Assembly (NCBI GenBank): GCA_964387275.1
Contig: CAYLVW010000001.1
Location: 227,436 to 291,435, forward strand
Reading direction: 5' to 3'
From: an uncultured Candidatus Saccharibacteria bacterium
GTDB taxonomy: Bacteria; Patescibacteriota; WWE3; UBA101185; UBA10185
DNA length: 64,000 nucleotides
Part shown: piece after piece, positions 15,406 through 57,287 of the stretch
How the letters are laid out: each line of letters begins with the position of its first letter
Numbering within the stretch: the first letter of the stretch is position 1
Notes under the pieces: generated by a model
Told to the model about the DNA's origin: nothing
Seen by the model: only the letters and a program-made list of their open reading frames with translations
Database searches by the model: none
Program-made: the position numbers and the translations under genes

Positions 15406-15432
15406 GGGCCGCCTGCATTCTGCAGGCGGCCC
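15406..15432 (+). terminator. GC-rich perfect hairpin downstream of ppsA (GGGCCGCCTGCA-TTC-TGCAGGCGGCCC); no U-tract
   Basis: A 12-bp perfect stem with a 3-nt loop lies 35 nt after the ppsA stop, in an AT-rich intergenic region. Confidence 0.5.
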
Positions 15433-18070: not shown

Positions 18071-18757
18071 CTAGCGTATTATATAGGACAGATAGTCTTG
18101 CGCAAGCGGTGTTTCCATTTCACAGACTTCTTCTACAGTAAGGTTTTCGAAGTATTTTCTAAATCCTCTAATTGAATTTCCATGACAAGAAATAGCAACA
18201 TTGATGTTGTTATCTTTGATCATTGGTACTATTTCATCGCAAAAATTCTTTACCCTCAGAATTACTTCTTCTAAGTTTTCACCGCCTTGTGCTTTTTTTG
18301 TATAGGATCGTCTATATTCTTTTAATAATTCAGGATTTTCTAGTTGGAGTAATAGTTTACTTTGTCCCTGTAATTCACCGTAGCATCTTTCTCTAATTCT
18401 AAAATCCGTATGTATGTCTAAACTAGTTGCTGTTGGATTTTTTGACATTGCTAATCTCATTGTTTGGACTGCTCTAACTTGAGGTGAGGAGATTAACATC
18501 TGAATTTTTTTATCTTTGAGTTTATCTGCTAGGTCCAAGGCTTGTTTTTCGCCTTTTAAAGTTAATTTTGCATCACGCCATCCACTGAATATGTAGTTTT
18601 CGTTATCTTCTGATTGGCCATGTCTAAATATATAGACTGTAGGTAGGCTAGAGTCTTCCTCCTTTGGCATGAATGTAGTTTTTTTATAATTCAGGGTTTC
18701 GAGAGCATTATCTACAGTATCTTTTCCATACTTTGTATAAAAAGAGTTTAAATCCAT
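18071..18757 (-). CDS. Histidine phosphatase superfamily protein, 2,3-bisphosphoglycerate-dependent phosphoglycerate mutase-like
   Basis: Catalytic RHG motif (VYIFRHGQSEDNENYIFSGWRD) and second His motif (SCHGNSIRGF) as in dPGM/GpmB enzymes. Confidence 0.65.
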   Translation of the reverse strand: MDLNSFYTKYGKDTVDNALETLNYKKTTFMPKEEDSSLPTVYIFRHGQSEDNENYIFSGWRDAKLTLKGEKQALDLADKLKDKKIQMLISSPQVRAVQTMRLAMSKNPTATSLDIHTDFRIRERCYGELQGQSKLLLQLENPELLKEYRRSYTKKAQGGENLEEVILRVKNFCDEIVPMIKDNNINVAISCHGNSIRGFRKYFENLTVEEVCEMETPLAQDYLSYIIR

Positions 18758-39448: not shown

Positions 39449-40669
39449 ATGTATATAAAACCTGAGATAGAAAGATTCGCAAAAATTAGAGTAGTTGGCG
39501 TAGGCGGTGCGGGGTGTAATGTGTTAAACACAATGATTTCCTCAAAGCAGATTCAGGGTGTTGAATTTATTGCTGTTAACACAGATGCTCAGGCACTTTC
39601 TGTAAATCAAGCTTTTGTAAAATTACCGATTGGCCAGGAGCTAACTCATGGTTTGGGGGCTGGATCTAATCCTGATGTTGGTAAGAAAGCAGCTGAGGAA
39701 AGTTTGGAGACCATTAAATCCAATTTAGAAGGTTCTGACATGGTTTTTATTACATCAGGTATGGGTGGGGGTACAGGTACAGGGGCCTCTCCTGTAATTG
39801 CTGCGTTAGCAAAGAAAATGGGCGCATTAACTATTGGCGTTGTAACTAAACCTTTTTCTTTTGAAGGTTCCAAGAGAATGAGAAATGCGGAGAAGGGTAT
39901 AGATGAGCTTAAAAAGGAAGTTGATGCCTTGATAGTTATACCAAACAACAAGTTACTTGAGATATCCGACGAGAAGATGTCTATGATTGATGCTTTTAGG
40001 CTTTCTGATAGCGTATTAAACCAAGGTGTTCAAGGTATATCTGATTTGATTGTTATGCCAGGTCTAGTAAATGTAGATTTTGCAGATGTTAGAACTATTA
40101 TGAAGGATTCTGGATCTGCTCTGATGGGTATAGGTATTGGTACTGGTGAGGGAAGAGCTGAAAAAGCTGCCCAAGATGCAATATCCTCTCCTCTATTAGA
40201 ACTTTCAATTGAAGGAGCTACCGGCATACTATTTAATATCGTTGGAGGCGCAAATTTGACGATGAAGGAGATTGACAGAGCTGCAGGGATTATCACTTCG
40301 GCTGCTTCACCAGATGCTAATGTTATTTTTGGTACGACTATAGACGAATCCTTAACAGATCAAATCAAGATCACTGTTATTGCAACAGGTTTCGACGATG
40401 ATGTTAAATCCAGGCTTGGCTTTAATGTTGATGCCAGAAGGCACAATGCACCTGTACAAACTACTTCTCCTGTAGCTCAGACTATATCCACTGAATTTTT
40501 AAAAGGTGAGGAGCTTACACCCGAACCTTTTAAGCATACCGATGATATGACAGGAAAAAAAGACGATAAAGACAGTAAAGGTCCTTTTAAGAACAATACT
40601 GGTAGTGGAGAAGGAGATTCAAATCCTGATTCCATTTATGATATTCCCGCTTTTCTCAGAAGAGATTAG
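39449..40669 (+). CDS. ftsZ: Cell division GTPase FtsZ
   Basis: [15 protein letters not shown] and tubulin signature [16 protein letters not shown], with an acidic/Gly-rich C-terminal tail ending DIPAFLRRD. Confidence 0.9.
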
Positions 40670-41050
40670 AAGTTTTTTCTACTTGCTTATTTTTGTAAGT
40701 AAGCCCAAGTCGCTATACTTTTCGTTCGTTTTTTTGAAGTAAGATTTATTCTTACAATATAGGGCTTGGGTTTTCAGGAGTTGAGGTTCTATTGTTATAC
40801 ATACGAAGGATGAGTTTTCTGCTTTTGCTTACGTAAACTCCTTTACTTAACACACTAACCTTATTGTCTGCTAATAAATTTTGTGTTTTGATAAAAATCA
40901 CAACGTAAATATTTAAAAGTTTTGTGGGCCACCAATTTTTTTATCGTAGTCAGGTAGGATAATGCTCAATCCTATACAGGGTACGATAGAGTTGATAACA
41001 ACTCCAACAGGCAGTGAAAGGTTGTTGCCTCATAAAATTTTCCCTGCACC

Positions 41051-43567
41051 ATGAACTGGTCAAATGTAGGAGGTTCTAGCACCTCTGAAACTTCTAAAGT
41101 TGCGGATACTACCGCAAATGTTTCTACGTCTCCAATTAAGCATCAAAAAAATCAAACTATCGAATTGTCGGAAAACTCTAGGAAAATCCTTGAAAAAAGG
41201 TATTTGAGGAGAGATGAAAAGGGTGCCCCTGCAGAAACAGTCGAGGGGATGTTTGATAGGATTGCAAAAACTATGGCAGAACCTGATAAGGGTTATAGAG
41301 ATACCGAGATTTCTGAGATAGAATACTACAACTTACTTTCTCAGAAAAAATTTTTTCCTAATTCACCAACATTTACTGGAGCCGGTACACCGCTAGGGCA
41401 GCTGGCTGCATGTTTTGTTCTTCCAGTTGCTGATGATCTTGGTAAAAGATCTGATGGTATTTTTTCAACACTTCGGGTTGCTGCTCTAATTCAGCAAGTT
41501 GGTGGTGGTAACGGCTTTTCTTTTTCTGATCTTAGGCCAAAAAATTCCAGAGTAGAGAGTAGCAATGGTAAGGCAACAGGTCCAGTAGGCTTTATGAAAG
41601 TTTATGATAGTGCATTTGGGGAGGTAGCTCAGGGTGGGGTTAGAAGAGGAGCTAATATGGGTGTATTACAAGTAGATCACCCAGATATAAGGGAGTTTAT
41701 TCAATGTAAGGCTGAAGAAGGTCAAGTTTCTAACTTTAATATTTCTGTTGCAATTACTGACAAATTTATGAAGGCGGTAATTGATGATACAACTTACGAT
41801 TTAGTAGACCCACATACAAAAAGAGTTACAGAATCCCCAAGAGCACGAGAGATATTTGAGATGATAGTAGAGTACGCTTACAGAAATGGAGAACCAGGAG
41901 CTTTGTTTATAGATGCTGCCAACAGACAGAACCCTGTTCCTCATCTTTACGATTTAAAAGCAACAAATCCCTGTGGAGAGCAGTGGCTAGGGCCTTATGA
42001 GAACTGTTGTTTAGGTTCTATTAATCTACTTCAAAATATTGATTCAAATGGAAACTTAGATTGGGAACAGTTTAGGGAGTCCATAGAGCTTTCAACTAGG
42101 TTTTTGGACAATGTTGTTACAGCTAATAAATACGTACCTGCTGTTCCAGAGCTTAGGCAAGCTGCAGAAAATGTTCGTAGGATTGGGTTAGGCTTAATGG
42201 GTCTTGCTGATGTAATGTATTCGATGGGAATTAGATACGGAAGTGATGAAGGTCAGGAATTTGCAGCTCAGGTTTCTGAGTTTATGAGATATCACTCTAT
42301 GAAGACTTCAATTCAGCTAGCGAAAGAAAGGGGGCCTTTCTTAAAAATAGAAGGCAGTATATACGATCCTAAGAATTTGAAGTTTGAGGTGCCAAAGCCC
42401 TTGAAACCTTACACAAGGAATTGGGGGCGACCCTCACTTAATTGGAATGAGATTGTAGACGGAATTAAATCTTATGGTATTAGAAACGGCGCCCAAACTA
42501 CGATTGCACCAACAGGAACTATTTCTACAGTTGCTGGTGTGGAAGGCTACGGATGTGAACCAGTTTTTGCTTTAGCTTATCTACGTAATGTTTACCAAGC
42601 TGCAGGAGATTCTGGTAAGTTAACGTTAACCTACGTGTCTCCATTATTTGAGAAGGCTTTGGATAAGTTGAATTTAAGTGCTGATATAAAGAAGAAAGTA
42701 TTAGATGAGGTTTTGGATAAAGGTACATGTCAACATATTGAAGAAATCCCCGAAGAGATTAGAAGAGTTTTTGTTGTATCTTCGGATGTTAGTGCAGAAG
42801 AACACATCATGATGCAAGCTTCTATCCAAGCATTTATTGATAACTCGATTTCTAAAACTTGTAATTTTCCTTCAACCGCTACTAAAGAAGATGTCGCTAA
42901 CGCTTACATACTTGGTTGGCAGAATGGTTGCAAGGGTCTTACGGTTTATGTAACAGGTTCTAGGCAAGAAGTTGTGTTGGAGACAAAGGAAACAAAAGCC
43001 AAGAAGGAAGGAGTTCCTGCTGAAGTTACAGTTAAGGTCGATGGATCTATTGTTGCTAATAGAGATTTACAGCAAAGTAGGGGTTACAAGCTTGCAGGAA
43101 CTACTTACAAAGTCGATACTCCCCAGGGTAAAGCGTTTATTACTGTGAATAAAGACTCTGATGGATCTCCTCTTGAGGTATTTGCAAGTGTTGGTAAGGC
43201 CGGTAGTGATGTTGCTGCTTTGTCAGAAGCATTAGGCAGACTTATTTCAGGTTGGCTTAGGTCTTCCAGTAACCCAGCAAAAACAGTCTACGAAATTGTT
43301 GTACAGCTAATTGGGATTGGTGGTGCTAGATCAGTTGGTTTTGGTGCTAAGAGGGTAAGTTCTATACCAGATGCTGTTGCTCAAGTTCTTGCTGAGGAGT
43401 TTGATATTAGAGTTCGTTCTAATGGTCAGAATAAAGTTGAAGAACAAAAAAAGACTGTTACAGCAGCAACCAGCCACACTAATATGTGTCCTGAGTGTGG
43501 TAATTCTTCTTTAGTTTTGGAAGAGGGTTGTGCAAAGTGTTACGATTGCGGTTACTCAGTCTGTTAG
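41051..43567 (+). CDS. nrdJ: Ribonucleoside-diphosphate/triphosphate reductase, class II (adenosylcobalamin-dependent, NrdJ)
   Basis: Class II RNR motifs TNPCGEQWL and NCCLGSINL, a 10-stranded barrel core, and a C-terminal Cys4 zinc ribbon CPECGNSS...[12 protein letters not shown]. Confidence 0.85.
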
Positions 43568-43589
43568 TTTAGTGTGTTGTTTTGGTTGT

Positions 43590-43644
43590 GAGGATTTAGT
43601 TTGGGGCGGGGCTGCTGTAAAACAGCAGCCCCGCCTAAATCCTC
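43590..43644 (+). terminator. Long GC-rich hairpin downstream of nrdJ (GAGGATTTAG[TTTGGG]GCGGGGCTGCTG-TAAAA-CAGCAGCCCCGCCTAAATCCTC)
   Basis: About 22 bp of stem with one 6-nt bulge, lying 23 nt after the nrdJ stop. There is no U-tract. Confidence 0.5.
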
Positions 43645-43689
43645 AGCCATAAATAAAAACTACATCCTACAAAAAACATGTAGTCCAAA

Positions 43690-44256
43690 ATGAAAATATA
43701 TACAAAAACCGGTGACAAAGGTCAAACATCTCTAATAGGAGGTATCAGAAAATCAAAAAAAGATCAGTTATTTGAAATATTGGGAGGTCTGGACGAGTTA
43801 AATTCGAGCATTTCTTTATTTAAAGAAAGTATTTTGGCAATAAAAAGCCACGACACTAACACAAGAACCATAATTAAAGAATTAATTATTACCCAAAATG
43901 TATTATTTGAGATAGGTGCGTTTGTAGCAAATCCAAAACAAAAAATAGCAACCACAGAATACTTGCTTGAACTTGTCTCAAGTTTAGAGTTAACAGTAGA
44001 CAACTTAGATCAAGAACTTCCAGAACTTAAAAACTTCATATTACCAGGAGGTAGCATGTCTTCTGCCTATGGACATTACTCTAGATCAGTATGTAGACGT
44101 GTAGAACGTGCCGTAGTTAGATATAGACCTTCTAAAAGTAGTAGATATAAGCATATAATAATTTATATAAATAGGTTATCCGACTTTCTATTTGTATGTG
44201 CCAGATACTGTAATTTTGTTTTAAGGAGAAAGGATGTTTTATGGGTAAAGGTCTAG
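43690..44256 (+). CDS. ATP:cob(I)alamin adenosyltransferase, PduO-type
   Basis: The N-terminus MKIYTKTGDKGQTSLIGG is the hallmark of the PduO/MMAB family; its length (188 aa) is typical. Confidence 0.8.
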   Translation: MKIYTKTGDKGQTSLIGGIRKSKKDQLFEILGGLDELNSSISLFKESILAIKSHDTNTRTIIKELIITQNVLFEIGAFVANPKQKIATTEYLLELVSSLELTVDNLDQELPELKNFILPGGSMSSAYGHYSRSVCRRVERAVVRYRPSKSSRYKHIIIYINRLSDFLFVCARYCNFVLRRKDVLWVKV

Positions 44257-44408
44257 ATTACAAATACTTACTTCTTTTTGTTACTCTCTTGATAGTGGGA
44301 TCTTTCTTATTGTTTTATATGGCAATTAGAGCATACAACGCTGACAAATACCTTGCGTCTGATGAATACAAAGATAAAAATCCTGAAAATTTAATTCTTA
44401 GTAAGTAG
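44241..44408 (+). CDS. Possible small membrane protein (55 aa) below the ORF-track size cut-off
   Basis: An ATG 12 nt after an AGGAGA element. It has one predicted TM helix (LLLFVTLLIVGSFLLFYMAI) and overlaps the 3' end of the adenosyltransferase gene in another frame. Confidence 0.25.
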   Translation: MGKGLDYKYLLLFVTLLIVGSFLLFYMAIRAYNADKYLASDEYKDKNPENLILSK

Positions 44409-44444
44409 CTTTATATTTTTACTTAATTTTAGTATGATACACCC

Positions 44445-47363
44445 ATGTTTAAAGAGATAAATTCTTCCCCGAATTTTCCGGAAATGGAGAAAAAAACTAA
44501 CGATTTTTGGAACAAGCTTAAAATTGTTGAGAAAGTACGAGCTTTAAGAAATACTGACAAGGTAGGTGAGAAAGTATATTACGATGGTCCTATAACAGCA
44601 AATGGAATGCCTCACTATGGTCATGCGATTACATGGACCTTAAAAGATGTTGTGCCTAGGTATTGGAGTATGTTGGGATACCAGGTACTTAGAAATATGG
44701 GCTGGGATTGCCAGGGAATACCAGTTGAGTACGAAGTTGAGAAAGAGTTAAAGTTTGAAAAAAAGGAAGATATAGAGGCATTTGGGGTTGAAAAATTTAA
44801 CCAGCTATGCAGAGAATCTGTTTTAAAACACCAGAAAGTTATGTTTGAGTATGAAACTCGCATTGGTAGGTGGTTTGATAACAAAGAAATTTATGCAACT
44901 ATGGACCCAACTTACATAGAAAGTATTTGGTGGTCACTAAAAGAGCTTTATACAAAGGGTTTGTTATATGAGGGACATAAAGTTGTAGCTTATTCCACAA
45001 GAGCAGGTACGACCTTATCCACTCATGAAGTAAGTGAGGGTGGCTACAAGGAGATAGAGGATCCTTGGATAACAGTAAGGTTTCCATTAGTTTCTACTGA
45101 AAAATTTTCAAAATATCTTCCTAATGGTGTTGCTAAGACATTTATTTTAGCTTGGACTACTACGCCTTGGACAATACCAGGTAATCTAATGCTTGCCGTT
45201 GGAGTTTCCATACAGTATGTAATGGTTGTGTGCGAAGGCAGTGCCTATATTGTTGCCAAAGAAAGACTAGAGGCAGTTTTTGAGGGTAAAACTTATACAA
45301 CAGTAGCAGAAATCTCCTCCTCCGATTTGCTTGGGTTGGAATACTCCCAACCTTTTAAACATTATGAATCAAAAAGAAGCGAGGGATGTTTTAGAATAAT
45401 CTCAGCTTCTCACACTAATACAGAAGATGGTACTGGTATAGTTCACCTGGCCCCCTATGGTGCTGAAGACTTTGAAGTTTTTATGGAGAGGGGGATTAAG
45501 ATTTTTGATTATCTGGATGAGAGCACAAACTTTACCAAAGACATACCAGAATATTCAGGTTTGTTTTATAAACAAGCCAATAAGAAAATTATCGCTGATC
45601 TACAAAATAAAGGCTTGCTATTTTCCCATGGTACCGTAGTGCACAGGATGCCAATGTGCTGGAGAACAGGGACACCACTAATATATAAACCTGTTAAGAG
45701 CTGGTATGTGGCAGTTTCTAAACTAAAAGATAAATTGAAAGAACAAAATCAGTCACTTAACTGGTACCCAGAGCATCTAAAAAATGGTAATGCTGGTATT
45801 TGGATAAACAATGCTAGGGACTGGGCAATATCCAGATCTAGGTACTGGGGTACTCCTCTTCCGGTTTGGGTTAATGACAAGACCGGAGATATATTAGTGA
45901 TAGGTTCTTTTAAAGAGCTTCAAGATTTATCTGGTGTTTTGTTAAGTGATCCTCACAAGCCGTTTGTAGACGACATTACTTGGGAAGACAAGGCAAAAGG
46001 CGGTACTTTCAGAAGAATCAAAGATGTAATTGATGTTTGGTACGACTCAGGATCTATGCCCTTTGCTAGGTTGCACTATCCTTTTGAAAACAAAGACAAG
46101 TTTGAAGAATCATTTCCAGCTGAGTACATTGCCGAGGGCCCAGATCAAGTGAGACTATGGTTTTATGTAATGCACGTTCTTGGGGTTGCTTTATTTGATA
46201 AAGTACCATATAAAAACGTAGTTACGATAGGTACTATGCTAGATGAGCACGGGAAGAAACTATCTAAAAGTAAGAAAAATTATAAGCCAATGGATGAGGT
46301 TTTAGATGTTTATGGTGGGGATGTTTTAAGATATTTTATTCTTAACTCCTCCATAGTAAGTGGTACTGATAGTATCTTTTCTGAAAAATATCTAATTGAA
46401 GCAAGGAAAGAATTTTTCTTAATACTTTGGAACTCTCTTAAGTATTTTGTATCTTATGCTAATATTCACAATTTTGTACCCTCTAGTGACTATCCAGAAT
46501 TAAACGAGGTTAATGATTATTACTTGCTTGATAAATGGTTATTAGCTAAGTTTAAGGTTTTGCAGTCAGAAGTACTTAGCAGTATGAGTAGATATGATAT
46601 TTTAAATGCAGCAAGACAGTTTGGTCCATTTATAACAGACTTATCCACCTGGTATATTAGACGTTCTAGGGATAGGATAAAAGAAGGGGACCTAGACTCC
46701 CTTAAATCACTGTACTTTGTATTTTCAGAGCTATCAAAGCTCTTGTCCCCATTTCTACCTTTCCTTAGCGAAGAAATATATCAAACCCTAAATCTACCTA
46801 AAACAACCGGAAAAGACTCAGTACACCTAGACAAGTTTGGATCAATACCAGATCTTACCAATGAAGATCAACAACTACTCCTACAAATGGAAACAACCAG
46901 AAAAATCGTGTCTCTAGCACTTTCCATAAGAGTAACCGAAGGGGTAAAAATACGACAACCCTTAAGTGACCTTGTTGTAGTATTCAAAAACAAAGACTTA
47001 GCAGAAAACTTTATTTCTAGACTCATAAATGATGAAGTCAATATCAAAACAATAGGTACAGTTTTACCATCTGACCTCTCTTCTTACAAAATGGCAGAAG
47101 ATACAGACTTTGTATTATATCTAAATACAGATATAACCGACGAGCTAAAACTTGAAGGAGACGCAAGAGATTTAGTTAGAAAGGTACAGGAAATGCGTAA
47201 GGAAAGTAATTTAGCTGTTGAAACCAAAATAGATTTAGTTCTTCCACAATCTCCAAAAAACAAACTTTTAATTGAGAATTTTAGAGATTATCTACTTGCC
47301 AAAACACAGGCTAAAACATTAGATATTTCTGATGAAGTTAATGATATAGTTATTAAATGCTAG
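44445..47363 (+). CDS. ileS: Isoleucine--tRNA ligase
   Basis: Class I HIGH (PHYGHA) and KMSKS (KLSKSKKN) motifs, with the IleRS-type GWDCQGIPVE segment. 972 aa, with no C-terminal zinc finger (type 2-like). Confidence 0.7.
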   Translation: MFKEINSSPNFPEMEKKTNDFWNKLKIVEKVRALRNTDKVGEKVYYDGPITANGMPHYGHAITWTLKDVVPRYWSMLGYQVLRNMGWDCQGIPVEYEVEKELKFEKKEDIEAFGVEKFNQLCRESVLKHQKVMFEYETRIGRWFDNKEIYATMDPTYIESIWWSLKELYTKGLLYEGHKVVAYSTRAGTTLSTHEVSEGGYKEIEDPWITVRFPLVSTEKFSKYLPNGVAKTFILAWTTTPWTIPGNLMLAVGVSIQYVMVVCEGSAYIVAKERLEAVFEGKTYTTVAEISSSDLLGLEYSQPFKHYESKRSEGCFRIISASHTNTEDGTGIVHLAPYGAEDFEVFMERGIKIFDYLDESTNFTKDIPEYSGLFYKQANKKIIADLQNKGLLFSHGTVVHRMPMCWRTGTPLIYKPVKSWYVAVSKLKDKLKEQNQSLNWYPEHLKNGNAGIWINNARDWAISRSRYWGTPLPVWVNDKTGDILVIGSFKELQDLSGVLLSDPHKPFVDDITWEDKAKGGTFRRIKDVIDVWYDSGSMPFARLHYPFENKDKFEESFPAEYIAEGPDQVRLWFYVMHVLGVALFDKVPYKNVVTIGTMLDEHGKKLSKSKKNYKPMDEVLDVYGGDVLRYFILNSSIVSGTDSIFSEKYLIEARKEFFLILWNSLKYFVSYANIHNFVPSSDYPELNEVNDYYLLDKWLLAKFKVLQSEVLSSMSRYDILNAARQFGPFITDLSTWYIRRSRDRIKEGDLDSLKSLYFVFSELSKLLSPFLPFLSEEIYQTLNLPKTTGKDSVHLDKFGSIPDLTNEDQQLLLQMETTRKIVSLALSIRVTEGVKIRQPLSDLVVVFKNKDLAENFISRLINDEVNIKTIGTVLPSDLSSYKMAEDTDFVLYLNTDITDELKLEGDARDLVRKVQEMRKESNLAVETKIDLVLPQSPKNKLLIENFRDYLLAKTQAKTLDISDEVNDIVIKC

Positions 47364-54673: not shown

Positions 54674-55129
54674 ATGGAAGATTTTACCCGAGGGCTGTTC
54701 CTTTTTGTGGGCATTGTGTCTATTGTTGGTGTTATTGCTAATCTGTTCGATCTTACGAAACCAGTCAATAAAGGATCTTTTGGTATATTTAGTCTATTTA
54801 TTGTTACTATTGCCCAGGGTATAGAGTTTATTTGCAATACTATTGGGGTTTGGATTCTCACTGCAAGTGGGCTTTTTCCTTGGTGGGTTGGGGTTTTGTC
54901 TATCGCAGTTATTGTCACAATTATCGTATTTTTCCTAAGACCTTCTAACATCAAGAAGCTTAGTGAAATTGCTAAGGAAAGCGCTCAACATGCAAATGAG
55001 ATTCTTTCACAAGGATCTGCCAGTTACGATACAGGTAAAAAGACTTTTCATGAGATTTTGCTTAGTGTTATGGTTATCGTTTTGGAAGCGTCTATGGCTC
55101 TTATTGTTATGGGTATTATTAAGGTTTAG
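54674..55129 (+). CDS. Hypothetical membrane protein (151 aa, 4 TM)
   Basis: Hydrophobic ORF; unassigned. Confidence 0.45.
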   Translation: MEDFTRGLFLFVGIVSIVGVIANLFDLTKPVNKGSFGIFSLFIVTIAQGIEFICNTIGVWILTASGLFPWWVGVLSIAVIVTIIVFFLRPSNIKKLSEIAKESAQHANEILSQGSASYDTGKKTFHEILLSVMVIVLEASMALIVMGIIKV

Positions 55130-55157: not shown

Positions 55158-55206
55158 GGGGCGGCCGGAAAAGCGCAACTTTGTTGCTGATTTTCCGCGC
55201 CGCCCC
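55158..55206. repeat. 49-nt GC-rich palindromic element, copy A (GGGGCGGCCGGAAAAGCGCAACTTTGTTGCTGATTTTCCGCGCCGCCCC), between convergent genes
   Basis: 47 of 49 positions are identical to copy B at 56704-56752. It can fold as a nested hairpin (GGGGCGGC/GCCGCCCC, CGGAAAA/TTTTCCG, GCAAC/GTTGC). Confidence 0.7.
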
Positions 55207-55211
55207 ATTAC

Positions 55212-55694
55212 TTATCTATTACCAAAAGTTGTAACAAAAAATGACATAAAATATCCCGTCAATATTGCGAGCTCTGTCCAAACAAACCTCTCTTCATCCC
55301 AAGCGTCCATATTACAGTATTCTTCCAGTGAGACTGATTTACCATTGCCTATATCTATATTATTAATATTAAGTGCTGTGTAGTAGTTTCTTTCTTGTAT
55401 TTTTGCAACACCAACATTGTATCTTTTTAGTCCGTAGTAAAGACCCAGTACTATATACACGATAAAAGCCCAAGCTACCCAGGTTTGTAAACTTCCAAGT
55501 AGAACACTAGCAATTATGCACGCACTAGACGCTATTATAAGTAGCGTGATCCAAAAAGATAGAGTAAAAAGTGCTCTTCTATTAAGATGCTTTATCTTCG
55601 GTATGTACATACAAAGCCCTAGATAAATTATAAGTGCTGCGCCGATCACTCCATTTAGAAGTGTGATTGCTCCAATGAGCATCTGTGTAGTCAT
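55212..55694 (-). CDS. Hypothetical membrane protein (160 aa, 4 TM)
   Basis: Hydrophobic ORF; unassigned. Confidence 0.45.
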   Translation of the reverse strand: MTTQMLIGAITLLNGVIGAALIIYLGLCMYIPKIKHLNRRALFTLSFWITLLIIASSACIIASVLLGSLQTWVAWAFIVYIVLGLYYGLKRYNVGVAKIQERNYYTALNINNIDIGNGKSVSLEEYCNMDAWDEERFVWTELAILTGYFMSFFVTTFGNR

Positions 55695-56110
55695 TAGTTA
55701 AGCATCAAGGTAAGAACAATCAACGGTATAGATATAAACACACCCAAATAATCTCTAGTCTCACTATTTTGAGTAGTATCATTCCAATTTACATCTTGCT
55801 CTGATTTAAGCGCCTGGTGTATTTTTCTTCCTACTATATTTTCCACCATAAATGCCAGATCATATACTATAAAGTAACTGTAAATCAAAATATAAGGTAT
55901 ACCTATAATTGCATGTACCTTACTTTGAATAAACCACATATTGTAGGCAATTATTATTACCCCAAGCGATCTAAGTAGTCTTACAAAGAAGGCGATACTT
56001 AAATCTCGTACTTTGAGTATTGCGTAGGGCTTAGTTGAATCGAAAGTGCCTGTCATTATGGAACTAAGGCATAGTACTAGCAATCCTACCGTAAGAACTG
56101 AGATCTCCAT
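55694..56110 (-). CDS. Hypothetical membrane protein (about 138 aa)
   Basis: Hydrophobic ORF. The start is placed at the internal MEISVLTVGLLVL; the ORF track extends to 56155. Confidence 0.4.
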   Translation of the reverse strand: MEISVLTVGLLVLCLSSIMTGTFDSTKPYAILKVRDLSIAFFVRLLRSLGVIIIAYNMWFIQSKVHAIIGIPYILIYSYFIVYDLAFMVENIVGRKIHQALKSEQDVNWNDTTQNSETRDYLGVFISIPLIVLTLMLN

Positions 56111-56215
56111 TTTCTTCCCCTTTACTAGGGGGATTGTACAACAGTTTATACCCAATAACCATAGAATTTGCAGTATCCTGCTTGGTGTTGTAAGATCTTC
56201 CAGAAAGGAAGGAAA

Positions 56216-56668
56216 ATGGACCCTAAGTGGCTCGTTTTGACTTATTTTGTTACTTTCTCATTTTTTGCGCTTAATATGGTTTTTAATCTAACAGAGCGTG
56301 TGGTGCGAGGAAGGGGTAGGTTTACTTATGTTTTGGGATCTATCGCCCTGGCGATAATGGCTAGTGCCTCTTTTTTTATTTTCACATCAAACGTGGAAAG
56401 TGCCTATACAGGTGGTATTTTGTACCCTAATGCTATTGTAGTTCTTTTGTCGGCTTACTTGCTCATTTATTCAGGTGTACATTTGTTGGCTAGTTTTCTC
56501 GATAGAGCCATTAAGGTTTACTATGCTTTTTCCTATAGTAGGGTCCCTTCGGAAACTAATAAATTGACTGCTACACAAGAGTTTTTGCCTTTTTGGCCTA
56601 TTACTGGGATTCCTGATATGGTTATGATTTTATGTTTTATTTTTATGCTTGTTATTTACTGGGTTTAA
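56216..56668 (+). CDS. Hypothetical membrane protein (about 150 aa, 4 TM)
   Basis: Hydrophobic ORF. The start is placed at MDPKWLVLTYF; the ORF track starts at 56168. Confidence 0.4.
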   Translation: MDPKWLVLTYFVTFSFFALNMVFNLTERVVRGRGRFTYVLGSIALAIMASASFFIFTSNVESAYTGGILYPNAIVVLLSAYLLIYSGVHLLASFLDRAIKVYYAFSYSRVPSETNKLTATQEFLPFWPITGIPDMVMILCFIFMLVIYWV

Positions 56669-56703
56669 TTATTAGTTAGTTGTTTAGGATTTAGATATGT
56701 TAC

Positions 56704-56752
56704 GGGGCGGCCGGAAAAGCGCAACTTCGTTGCTGATTTTCCGAGCCGCCCC
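56704..56752. repeat. 49-nt GC-rich palindromic element, copy B (GGGGCGGCCGGAAAAGCGCAACTTCGTTGCTGATTTTCCGAGCCGCCCC)
   Basis: Near-identical to copy A; again between convergent membrane-protein genes. Confidence 0.7.
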
Positions 56753-56786
56753 TAATTTCTTATACAGATAAAACCCTAAATAGTAT

Positions 56787-57287
56787 TTAAACTAATCTTG
56801 ATATAACCAGAGCATAAATATAAAAACCAGCTACATAGAATAAAACAAGGAAACTAACCCCAGTCACAATAACTTTATTAGTTAATATACTCTTATCACC
56901 AAGTTCTTGGATTTTCACCAAGATTTCTTGATTACCTGTATCACTTACAAAACTTTCTAGTAGTTTATGGCGTTCTTGTAAATAATTAAGCCCGTCACTT
57001 ATGTTATAGATATAAATACTAATAAACAGAAGCAACGGTAGAAGCGCCCAGAAAACTGACAGTTTTGAAAGACCTGCCCCATACCTCATAACTATAAACA
57101 TAAATAATAGGCTTAAAGATGCATTTATAGGTATTTGAAGAAGATCCATTGCATTAACATCTTTAATTTTCTTTTTAGTGCAATAGTTCCAGACAAAGTC
57201 TACATTTATGATGGAAGCGTAGAGACATAAAGCCATGCCAACCAAGATAATTACTAGTGACATCGGATTTTCTATATATACTGTCAT
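56787..57287 (-). CDS. Hypothetical membrane protein (166 aa, 4-5 TM)
   Basis: Hydrophobic ORF; unassigned. Confidence 0.45.
   Translation of the reverse strand: MTVYIENPMSLVIILVGMALCLYASIINVDFVWNYCTKKKIKDVNAMDLLQIPINASLSLLFMFIVMRYGAGLSKLSVFWALLPLLLFISIYIYNISDGLNYLQERHKLLESFVSDTGNQEILVKIQELGDKSILTNKVIVTGVSFLVLFYVAGFYIYALVISRLV

Follow-up and report, generated by a model that had tools for sequence, protein, structure and literature searches.

We analyzed a 64,000-nt stretch of contig CAYLVW010000001.1 (GCA_964387275.1, positions 227,436-291,435, forward strand; hereafter the window), which belongs to a contig of at least 420 kb. The host is a WWE3 (Katanobacteria) bacterium of the Candidate Phyla Radiation (CPR). 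The locus under study consists of two neighbouring genes on the plus strand. The first, nrdJ (41051-43567, 838 aa), encodes a class II ribonucleoside-diphosphate reductase that depends on adenosylcobalamin (AdoCbl). The second, pduO (43690-44256, 188 aa, MKIYTKTGDKGQTSL...), encodes a PduO-type ATP:cob(I)alamin adenosyltransferase made up of the N-terminal domain only. A GC-rich hairpin lies between the two genes, a structured RNA leader precedes nrdJ, and the GC content is uniform across the locus. To obtain the gene inventory of the window, open reading frames (ORFs) of at least 100 aa were compared with Pfam, using our own scans and precomputed matches, and a few ORFs were also compared with NCBIfam. 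The window carries cell-division, cell-wall and glycolytic genes, UvrABC, LexA, aminoacyl-tRNA synthetases and unannotated membrane proteins.

The assignment of NrdJ was based on Pfam, NCBIfam and an alignment with the Thermotoga maritima enzyme. In Pfam, the protein matched Ribonuc_red_lgN (PF00317, 3e-21) and Ribonuc_red_lgC (PF02867, 5e-131), which are the all-alpha and barrel domains, as well as TSCPD. It scored 650.7 bits against TIGR02504 (NrdJ_Z; cutoff 400). With TIGR02506, the model for class I, it reached 335 bits, slightly under the cutoff of 341. The best match among solved structures was T. maritima NrdJ (PDB 1XJE/1XJK, 4.5e-110), and residues C121, N306, C308, E310 and C319 of the window protein aligned with C134, N320, C322, E324 and C333 of that enzyme. 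The thiyl-radical cysteine lies in the finger loop N306-P-C308-G-E310, and the redox cysteine pair C121 and C319 is kept. By the TIGR02504 assignment, the window protein is of the dimeric type and acts on nucleoside diphosphates. It differs from T. maritima NrdJ at both ends: the N-terminus is longer by about 30 aa, and the C-terminus carries a TSCPD domain followed by a six-cysteine zinc-finger tail (CPEC...) of the NrdJd type (PMC5704485). Such a tail has been described for most class II ribonucleotide reductases (RNRs) (PMC5704485). An ATP-cone is absent. In some relatives, NrdJ has insertions of about 1 kb at the catalytic cysteine (window residue 308), as seen at L017:5622-6706 (on the same contig as L031), L021:1068-2047 and L035:394-4071 (L numbers denote the related loci). 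The insertion in L035 is an intein with a LAGLIDADG endonuclease, as judged from Pfam.

PduO matched PF01923 (Cob_adeno_trans) at 1e-46 over the full profile (1-171), and TIGR00636 (PduO_Nterm) with 148.3 bits (cutoff 108.45). The N-terminal ATP motif T-K-x-G-D-x-G-x-T/S was present as KIYTKTGDKGQTS, and an alignment with Lactobacillus reuteri PduO showed that the KIYTKTGDKGQT, DELNS and R..RR.ER motifs were retained. F116 of the window protein aligned with F112 of the L. reuteri enzyme. From the literature on that enzyme, we take F112 to be the phenylalanine that displaces the lower ligand, and the Asp, Arg and Glu residues to be the active-site cluster. L. reuteri PduO (PDB 3CI1) and human MMAB (2IDX) belong to the same single-domain fold family (E 6e-28 and 8e-26, respectively), and share with the window PduO the ATP-binding N-terminus, the F112 equivalent and the Arg/Glu cluster. 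In contrast to these two proteins, the window PduO stands outside any pdu microcompartment or mutase context, and its client would be NrdJ. The initial annotation of this DNA, which was made from the sequence alone, had assigned a class II RNR to 41051-43567 and a PduO-type adenosyltransferase to 43690-44256. Both assignments were borne out by the above scores; both reading frames were exact, the catalytic residues of NrdJ were intact, and the active-site motifs of PduO were kept.

We surveyed related loci starting from NrdJ homologs and, separately, from PduO homologs, and obtained the same picture either way. The NrdJ relatives at 65-88% identity all came from metagenome-assembled genomes (MAGs) of candidate division WWE3/Patescibacteria. 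The order ftsA-ftsZ-nrdJ-pduO-(small membrane ORF)-ileS was found again in about 25 WWE3 loci; a single exception is taken up below. Across these loci NrdJ was 65-88% identical and PduO only 30-52%, in the same gene order, indicating that the adjacency has been conserved over the long term. An apparent loss of pduO in L004 was due to the contig ending within the first pduO codons. The gap between nrdJ and pduO was 0-18 nt in 12 loci and at most 47 nt in most others, and at least 15 relatives combined a gap of 0-47 nt with the absence of a hairpin. Gaps of 0-18 nt imply co-transcription or translational coupling, and the short gaps in relatives point to a tightly coupled operon as the ancestral state. 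In one WWE3 lineage, a second NrdJ (L007:8500-10638; about 35% identical, with an N-terminal ATP-cone) was inserted between nrdJ and pduO, and both paralogs are kept directly upstream of pduO.

The pairing was also seen in Levybacteria, a further CPR lineage, as an nrdR-nrdJ(intein)-DUF4430-pduO cluster (L035-L038). This cluster resembles the window in that pduO comes after nrdJ, both on one strand and with hardly any gaps. It differs in the upstream NrdR, the NrdJ intein and a membrane-anchored, transcobalamin-like DUF4430 protein between the two genes, none of which was found in the window. In transcobalamin-type B12 binders, DUF4430 forms the C-terminal domain (PMC4350170), and the Levybacteria protein, with its N-terminal membrane anchor, is a candidate for binding B12 outside the cytoplasm of CPR bacteria. 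As a control, the gene for a PduO homolog in a bacterium bearing a type IX secretion system was found next to enoyl-CoA hydratase and not next to nrdJ, so the adjacency to nrdJ is not general for pduO. The metagenome scan gave no lineages beyond these. Together, these comparisons show nrdJ and pduO to be a conserved two-gene module that would normally be co-transcribed.

The GC-rich hairpin between the two genes spans 43589-43645 on the plus strand. Its outer stem pairs 43589-43599 with 43635-43645 (11 bp). The inner stem, which is perfect and GC-rich, pairs 43603/5-43618 with 43622-43635/7 (14-15 bp) and leaves a 3-nt loop. The 128-nt nrdJ-pduO spacer folded at -54.6 kcal/mol (z = -7.2), and none of 200 shuffles folded equally well. 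The GC-rich stem-loop of a Rho-independent terminator is thus present; the U-tract is absent, with AGCCATAAATAAAAAC found there instead, and the terminator scan made no call. The hairpin ends 44 nt before the start of pduO, and the promoter scan found no promoter-like site in these 44 nt, so that neither a canonical promoter nor a canonical terminator was found between nrdJ and pduO. Three further GC-rich hairpins whose stems likewise begin with GGGGCGG/GGGCCGCC, again lacking T-tracts, were observed at gene ends in the window. One of them follows the PPDK gene (15406-15432), while the other two, which are near-identical copies, lie at convergent gene ends (55158-55207 and 56703-56753). The GC-rich tail-less hairpin is probably this genome's own type of terminator or transcript end. 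Hairpins of this class are often preceded by G/T-rich sequence (GGWTTTAG...). We also considered the nrdJ-pduO hairpin as a repeated mobile element and rejected this, since its exact sequence is unique in the window and only the GGGGCGG-type stem is common to the three other hairpins. At the same nrdJ-pduO position, L034, L015 and L049 carry non-homologous hairpins, which indicates that a hairpin here is recurrent and not ancestral.

A strong hairpin at 43590-43644 had been reported in the initial annotation, along with the suggestion that the two genes may be independently transcribed. The hairpin is real, but independent transcription appears doubtful in view of the gaps of 0-47 nt in at least 15 relatives, the 44 nt without a promoter-like site and the missing U-tail. 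The hairpin is most likely a terminator/attenuator or a 3'-end stabilizer. We favor partial termination or 3'-end stabilization, which would yield more nrdJ than pduO message, over two independent units, because the hairpin has no U-tract, belongs to the gene-end class seen elsewhere in the window, is not ancestral, and is followed by a gap without a promoter-like site. Short-read Logan contigs of the same strain (SRR12762304; end of L001 and start of L002) break inside the palindrome, at about 43609-43611, and overlap by about 3 nt. The nrdJ-pduO join in the window is supported by the synteny in all relatives, and not by the Logan assembly.

The ftsZ-nrdJ spacer is 381 nt long and has a conserved element at its 3' end. 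This element is a leader hairpin (40916-41040, plus strand) with its 5' arm at 40916-40942 and its 3' arm at 41017-41040, as concluded from the minimum-free-energy fold, from the alignment with the closest relative L034 (NrdJ 88% identical) and from covariation in the family. In relatives, the stem of the leader measures about 20 bp and its loop some 15 nt, and the element is found directly 5' of nrdJ (L003:5933-6009, L013:5851-5928, L034:1832-1910 and 17 other loci). The window copy has a 63-nt apical insertion (40943-41005, plus strand) that is window-specific, forms two small extra hairpins and is absent from L034 in the pairwise alignment. A stretch of it, GATAACAAC, could pair with the 3' arm instead. 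The loop motif GGCAGUG (41010-41016, plus strand) reads GGCAGT in 20 of the 21 leaders and AGCAGT in L046. A CUGC (41044-41047, plus strand), complementary to the GCAG of the loop, stands 3 nt before the AUG, and 16 of the 21 leaders have CUGC(C/U) 2-4 nt ahead of the AUG. This CUGC is a possible alternative or tertiary pairing partner of the loop. A loop-tail pseudoknot (GGCAG:CUGCC) was evaluated and could not be established: the variation is one-sided only (G-C, G-U, and A-U in L046) with an invariant loop, CUGC is missing from five of the 21 leaders, and the 20-bp stem makes an intramolecular contact awkward.

The leader structure was examined using covariation. RNAalifold on 12 sequences gave a 17-bp hairpin with compensatory changes at 13 pairs. 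A covariance model built from this hairpin matched the sense strand of 21 WWE3 loci once each, in every case immediately before nrdJ. Nine of these loci lay outside the seed (E 5e-12 to 1e-3), and there was no other match in the 378 kb searched. The scores were 31-73 bits on the sense strand and 17-22 bits on the reverse strand. In the 21-sequence alignment, which is model-fitted, 84.6% of the cells were paired (39-49% in slid controls), and the covariation score was 0.47 (0.11-0.18 in the controls), a value that none of 500 shuffles reached. Compensatory change was seen in 12 of the 17 pairs, and the stem runs 3-5 bp further. The row for the window in the covariance-model alignment uses a nearer, wrong 5' arm, the true arm being 40916-40942. 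When eight non-seed sequences were aligned with MAFFT and folded with RNAalifold, without any model fitting, the same hairpin was obtained with 21 bp and 13 compensatory pairs. The nrdJ leader therefore has a conserved, covarying 5'-UTR structure, which is a generic feature of riboswitches.

The leader had no match in Rfam. Over the 64-kb window, Rfam returned only one tRNA, with nothing at E<=10 within 40600-44500, and the cobalamin riboswitch (RF00174) and its variants gave no match at the gathering threshold. In seven related loci there was no Rfam match at E<=5, the cobalamin and 2'-deoxyguanosine (2'-dG) families included. We found no paper linking such an element to nrdJ. Regulation of nrdJ by NrdR was rejected, since the window lacks nrdR and the surroundings of nrdJ lack an NrdR box. 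Control of RNR genes in cis is known in several forms, namely B12 riboswitches on nrdAB and nrdDG, a 2'-dG riboswitch before Mesoplasma RNR genes, and NrdR boxes. The WWE3 leader resembles these in its location in cis, immediately before an RNR gene, in this case as a covarying RNA by the start codon. It differs from them in that Rfam has no match for it (cobalamin and 2'-dG included) and that neither an NrdR box nor, within the window, nrdR accompanies it.

A further motif, ATTGTCTGCTAA (40863-40874, plus strand; consensus ATTGTyTGCTAA), lies some 180 nt before nrdJ and also occurs upstream of nrdJ in L034, L013, L015, L023, L011 and L005. It is possibly the -35 part of the nrdJ promoter; a strict sigma-70 scan gave no match at 40863-40874. 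A promoter inside the leader (a -10-like TAAAAT before the CUGC) was rejected, as the AT-rich box is absent there in L023 and L039. The leader hairpin itself is absent from a second WWE3 group (L006, L007, L009, L010, L011 and L032). Four of these loci (L006, L007, L009 and L010) have a different nrdJ leader, TTTTGTGTTTyGATwAtATTACACTGCC, followed by terminator-like hairpins. The CACTGCC in this leader is the reverse complement of GGCAGTG, and a related GTGT-N12-CACA stretch is found in the window at 40875-40905, upstream of the leader hairpin.

The gene identities, along with the conserved pairing in WWE3 loci and Levybacteria, support the logic put forward in the initial annotation, in which PduO makes the AdoCbl that NrdJ needs. 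NrdJ would reduce ribonucleoside diphosphates with AdoCbl as the radical initiator. PduO would take cobalamin that has been imported or has lost its adenosyl group, and convert it (cob(II)/cob(I)alamin and ATP) to AdoCbl. It may also pass this product on to NrdJ and restore cofactor that side reactions have stripped of the adenosyl group. In this scheme, corrinoids would be taken up from outside, PduO would serve NrdJ specifically, and the cofactor would be transferred directly. Both genes would be expressed from a promoter upstream of the long structured nrdJ leader. The hairpin 3' of nrdJ would act as a partial terminator or 3'-end stabilizer, so that nrdJ mRNA would exceed pduO mRNA, and pduO would be reached by read-through. 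Taken together, we give a probability of roughly 80% to nrdJ-pduO being a cofactor-supply module with a leader-upstream promoter and an attenuating hairpin.

When we looked among the ORFs of the window for other genes of B12 and nucleotide metabolism, Pfam gave no cob/cbi gene, no second RNR and no R2-like (NrdB/NrdF) ORF. This agrees with the initial annotation, which had noted the absence of cobalamin biosynthesis genes and NrdJ as the only visible RNR. A His_Phos_1 ORF (18071-18757) was considered as CobC and ruled out; it is a dPGM (TIGR01258 above cutoff, CobC far below). BtuFCD, ECF (energy-coupling factor), BtuM, DUF4430 and CbrT were likewise absent from these ORFs in Pfam/NCBIfam, so the B12-uptake part of a salvage cluster is missing here. 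For a CPR genome of less than 1 Mb, corrinoid salvage, a sole RNR and a dependence on outside B12 are plausible; the data cover 64 kb, and the contig measures 420 kb or more.

A similar arrangement is known from Lactobacillus delbrueckii, a B12 auxotroph, whose nrdJ-cbrS-cbrT-pduO cluster has been read as salvage for NrdJ (Rodionov et al. 2009; Santos et al. 2018, PMC5997447). The likeness lies in a class II RNR clustered with a PduO that would adenosylate salvaged cobalamin for NrdJ, and nrdJ and pduO are co-oriented and adjacent across the WWE3 relatives, as in a cobalamin-salvage cluster of the Lactobacillus type. The WWE3 module differs in that neither an ECF S-component nor a transporter gene of another kind accompanies nrdJ and pduO, be it between them or alongside, in that no cobalamin riboswitch is detectable, and in its position after ftsA-ftsZ. 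In a survey of gut genomes, B12 auxotrophs with only BtuR/PduO were the commonest auxotroph variant (PMC6593275). Since such adenosyltransferase-only auxotrophs are the commonest type and nrdJ...pduO clustering has been published for L. delbrueckii (PMC5997447), the nrdJ-pduO pairing is an ordinary, already understood B12-salvage arrangement, and its novelty had been overrated in the initial annotation.

Some observations weigh against the cofactor-supply module. The 64-kb window shows neither a corrinoid transporter nor a cob(II)alamin reductase or flavodoxin. In L046 (GCA_052035175.1, 925-kb contig; L046:3954-4203), the sole exception to the conserved order, an intact nrdJ is followed by the small membrane ORF and ileS, with pduO absent from this position, so that PduO in L046 is either encoded elsewhere or dispensable. 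The hairpin core has a stability of -43 kcal/mol, at which complete termination is equally possible. If the hairpin were a full terminator, nrdJ and pduO would be separate transcription units in this strain, and their adjacency only inherited synteny. The high stability of the hairpin, the occurrence of the same type at convergent gene ends, where termination is expected, and the separate origin of the hairpins found at this position in L034, L015 and L049 are in keeping with full termination. We nevertheless consider it unlikely, because it is at odds with the missing promoter-like site in the 44 nt before pduO, the missing U-tail, and the short gaps without a hairpin in most relatives. Regarding PduO itself, adenosyltransferases of the human type deliver the cofactor to their client mutase and also retrieve it. 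PduO might similarly be mainly a repair enzyme or chaperone, with AdoCbl imported ready-made and only the cob(II)alamin from damaged NrdJ being re-adenosylated. The presence of nrdJ without pduO at the L046 locus would fit such a role, as NrdJ may be supplied otherwise. By sequence, this role looks the same as adenosylation of salvaged cobalamin, and the two are compatible; as the main role of PduO we regard it as possible but rather improbable. It is very unlikely, in our estimate, that the genome is not dependent on B12 at all, having a B12-independent RNR or its own corrinoid synthesis, with the module as an accessory, oxygen-independent back-up. Many bacteria have several RNR classes, and the contig, at 420 kb or more, is far longer than the 64 kb in view. 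B12 enzymes are also often dispensable (PMC6593275). Against this, nrdJ is part of the conserved dcw/ftsAZ core region in every WWE3 locus, and the lineage that duplicated nrdJ added no other RNR class. CPR genomes are smaller than 1 Mb (the WWE3 contigs with this nrdJ are 0.47-0.99 Mb) and, to our knowledge, generally lack cofactor biosynthesis.

The role of the leader was weighed in the same way. It may be an undescribed cis-regulatory RNA of Katanobacteria that senses a metabolite (a deoxynucleoside triphosphate (dNTP) or deoxynucleoside, or a corrinoid) or binds a protein, and thereby sets RNR translation in a lineage without NrdR at this locus; we regard this as possible but less likely than not. 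A Shine-Dalgarno sequence is missing upstream of most window genes and present at few (44241, 53776, 17748- and 56787-); since most genes lack it, a structure near the AUG is plausible for the control of initiation. The leader could also be a mere mRNA stabilizer or a translational damper without a sensor, or a palindromic operator at the DNA level, and we place this not far below even odds. It would agree with the lack of a nameable ligand and, in the case of an operator, with the sequence conservation of the upper stem (CAAUCUU/AAGGUUG) and the loop. However, the lower stem covaries with free sequence change and has many G-U pairs, and the sense strand scores well above the reverse strand, which together point to an RNA rather than a DNA element. 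The invariant 6-nt loop, in turn, implies recognition by some partner, which speaks against a stabilizer only. The nrdJ leader is thus a candidate new cis-regulatory RNA, and the only element of the locus with real potential for novelty.

Downstream of the pair, a small ORF (44241-44408, plus strand; 55 aa) overlaps the pduO stop by 16 nt and has a strong Shine-Dalgarno sequence. It encodes a conserved single-pass membrane protein, homologs of which (51-66 aa, KYLLL...YRAxxxDxYF) lie between pduO and ileS in L034:5058-5258, L045:4527-4694 and L047:4602-4757. We considered this protein as a B12 uptake component and could not link it to uptake, as it has no family match in Pfam or NCBIfam and a homolog persists in L046 (about L046:3999-4160) although pduO is missing there. 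From this distribution, the small membrane ORF is probably not B12-specific. Elsewhere in the window, four adjacent ORFs (54674-55129, 55212-55694, 55694-56155 and 56168-56668) and a fifth at 56787-57287 have no Pfam match. They encode proteins of 151-166 aa with 4-6 predicted hydrophobic segments each, and the two repeated GC hairpins lie among them.

The gene pair in itself is unsurprising, and is already annotated in public MAGs. It confirms the expectation for an ultra-small CPR bacterium that, with no visible cofactor synthesis, makes its DNA precursors through a B12-type cofactor and has kept the last activating enzyme. It can be of use in the design of enrichment media (cobalamin supply) and in modelling how B12 is cross-fed within communities. 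Should the leader RNA prove to be a sensor, it would be among the first lineage-specific regulatory RNAs in Patescibacteria, and would provide a handle on the control of dNTP supply in these bacteria.

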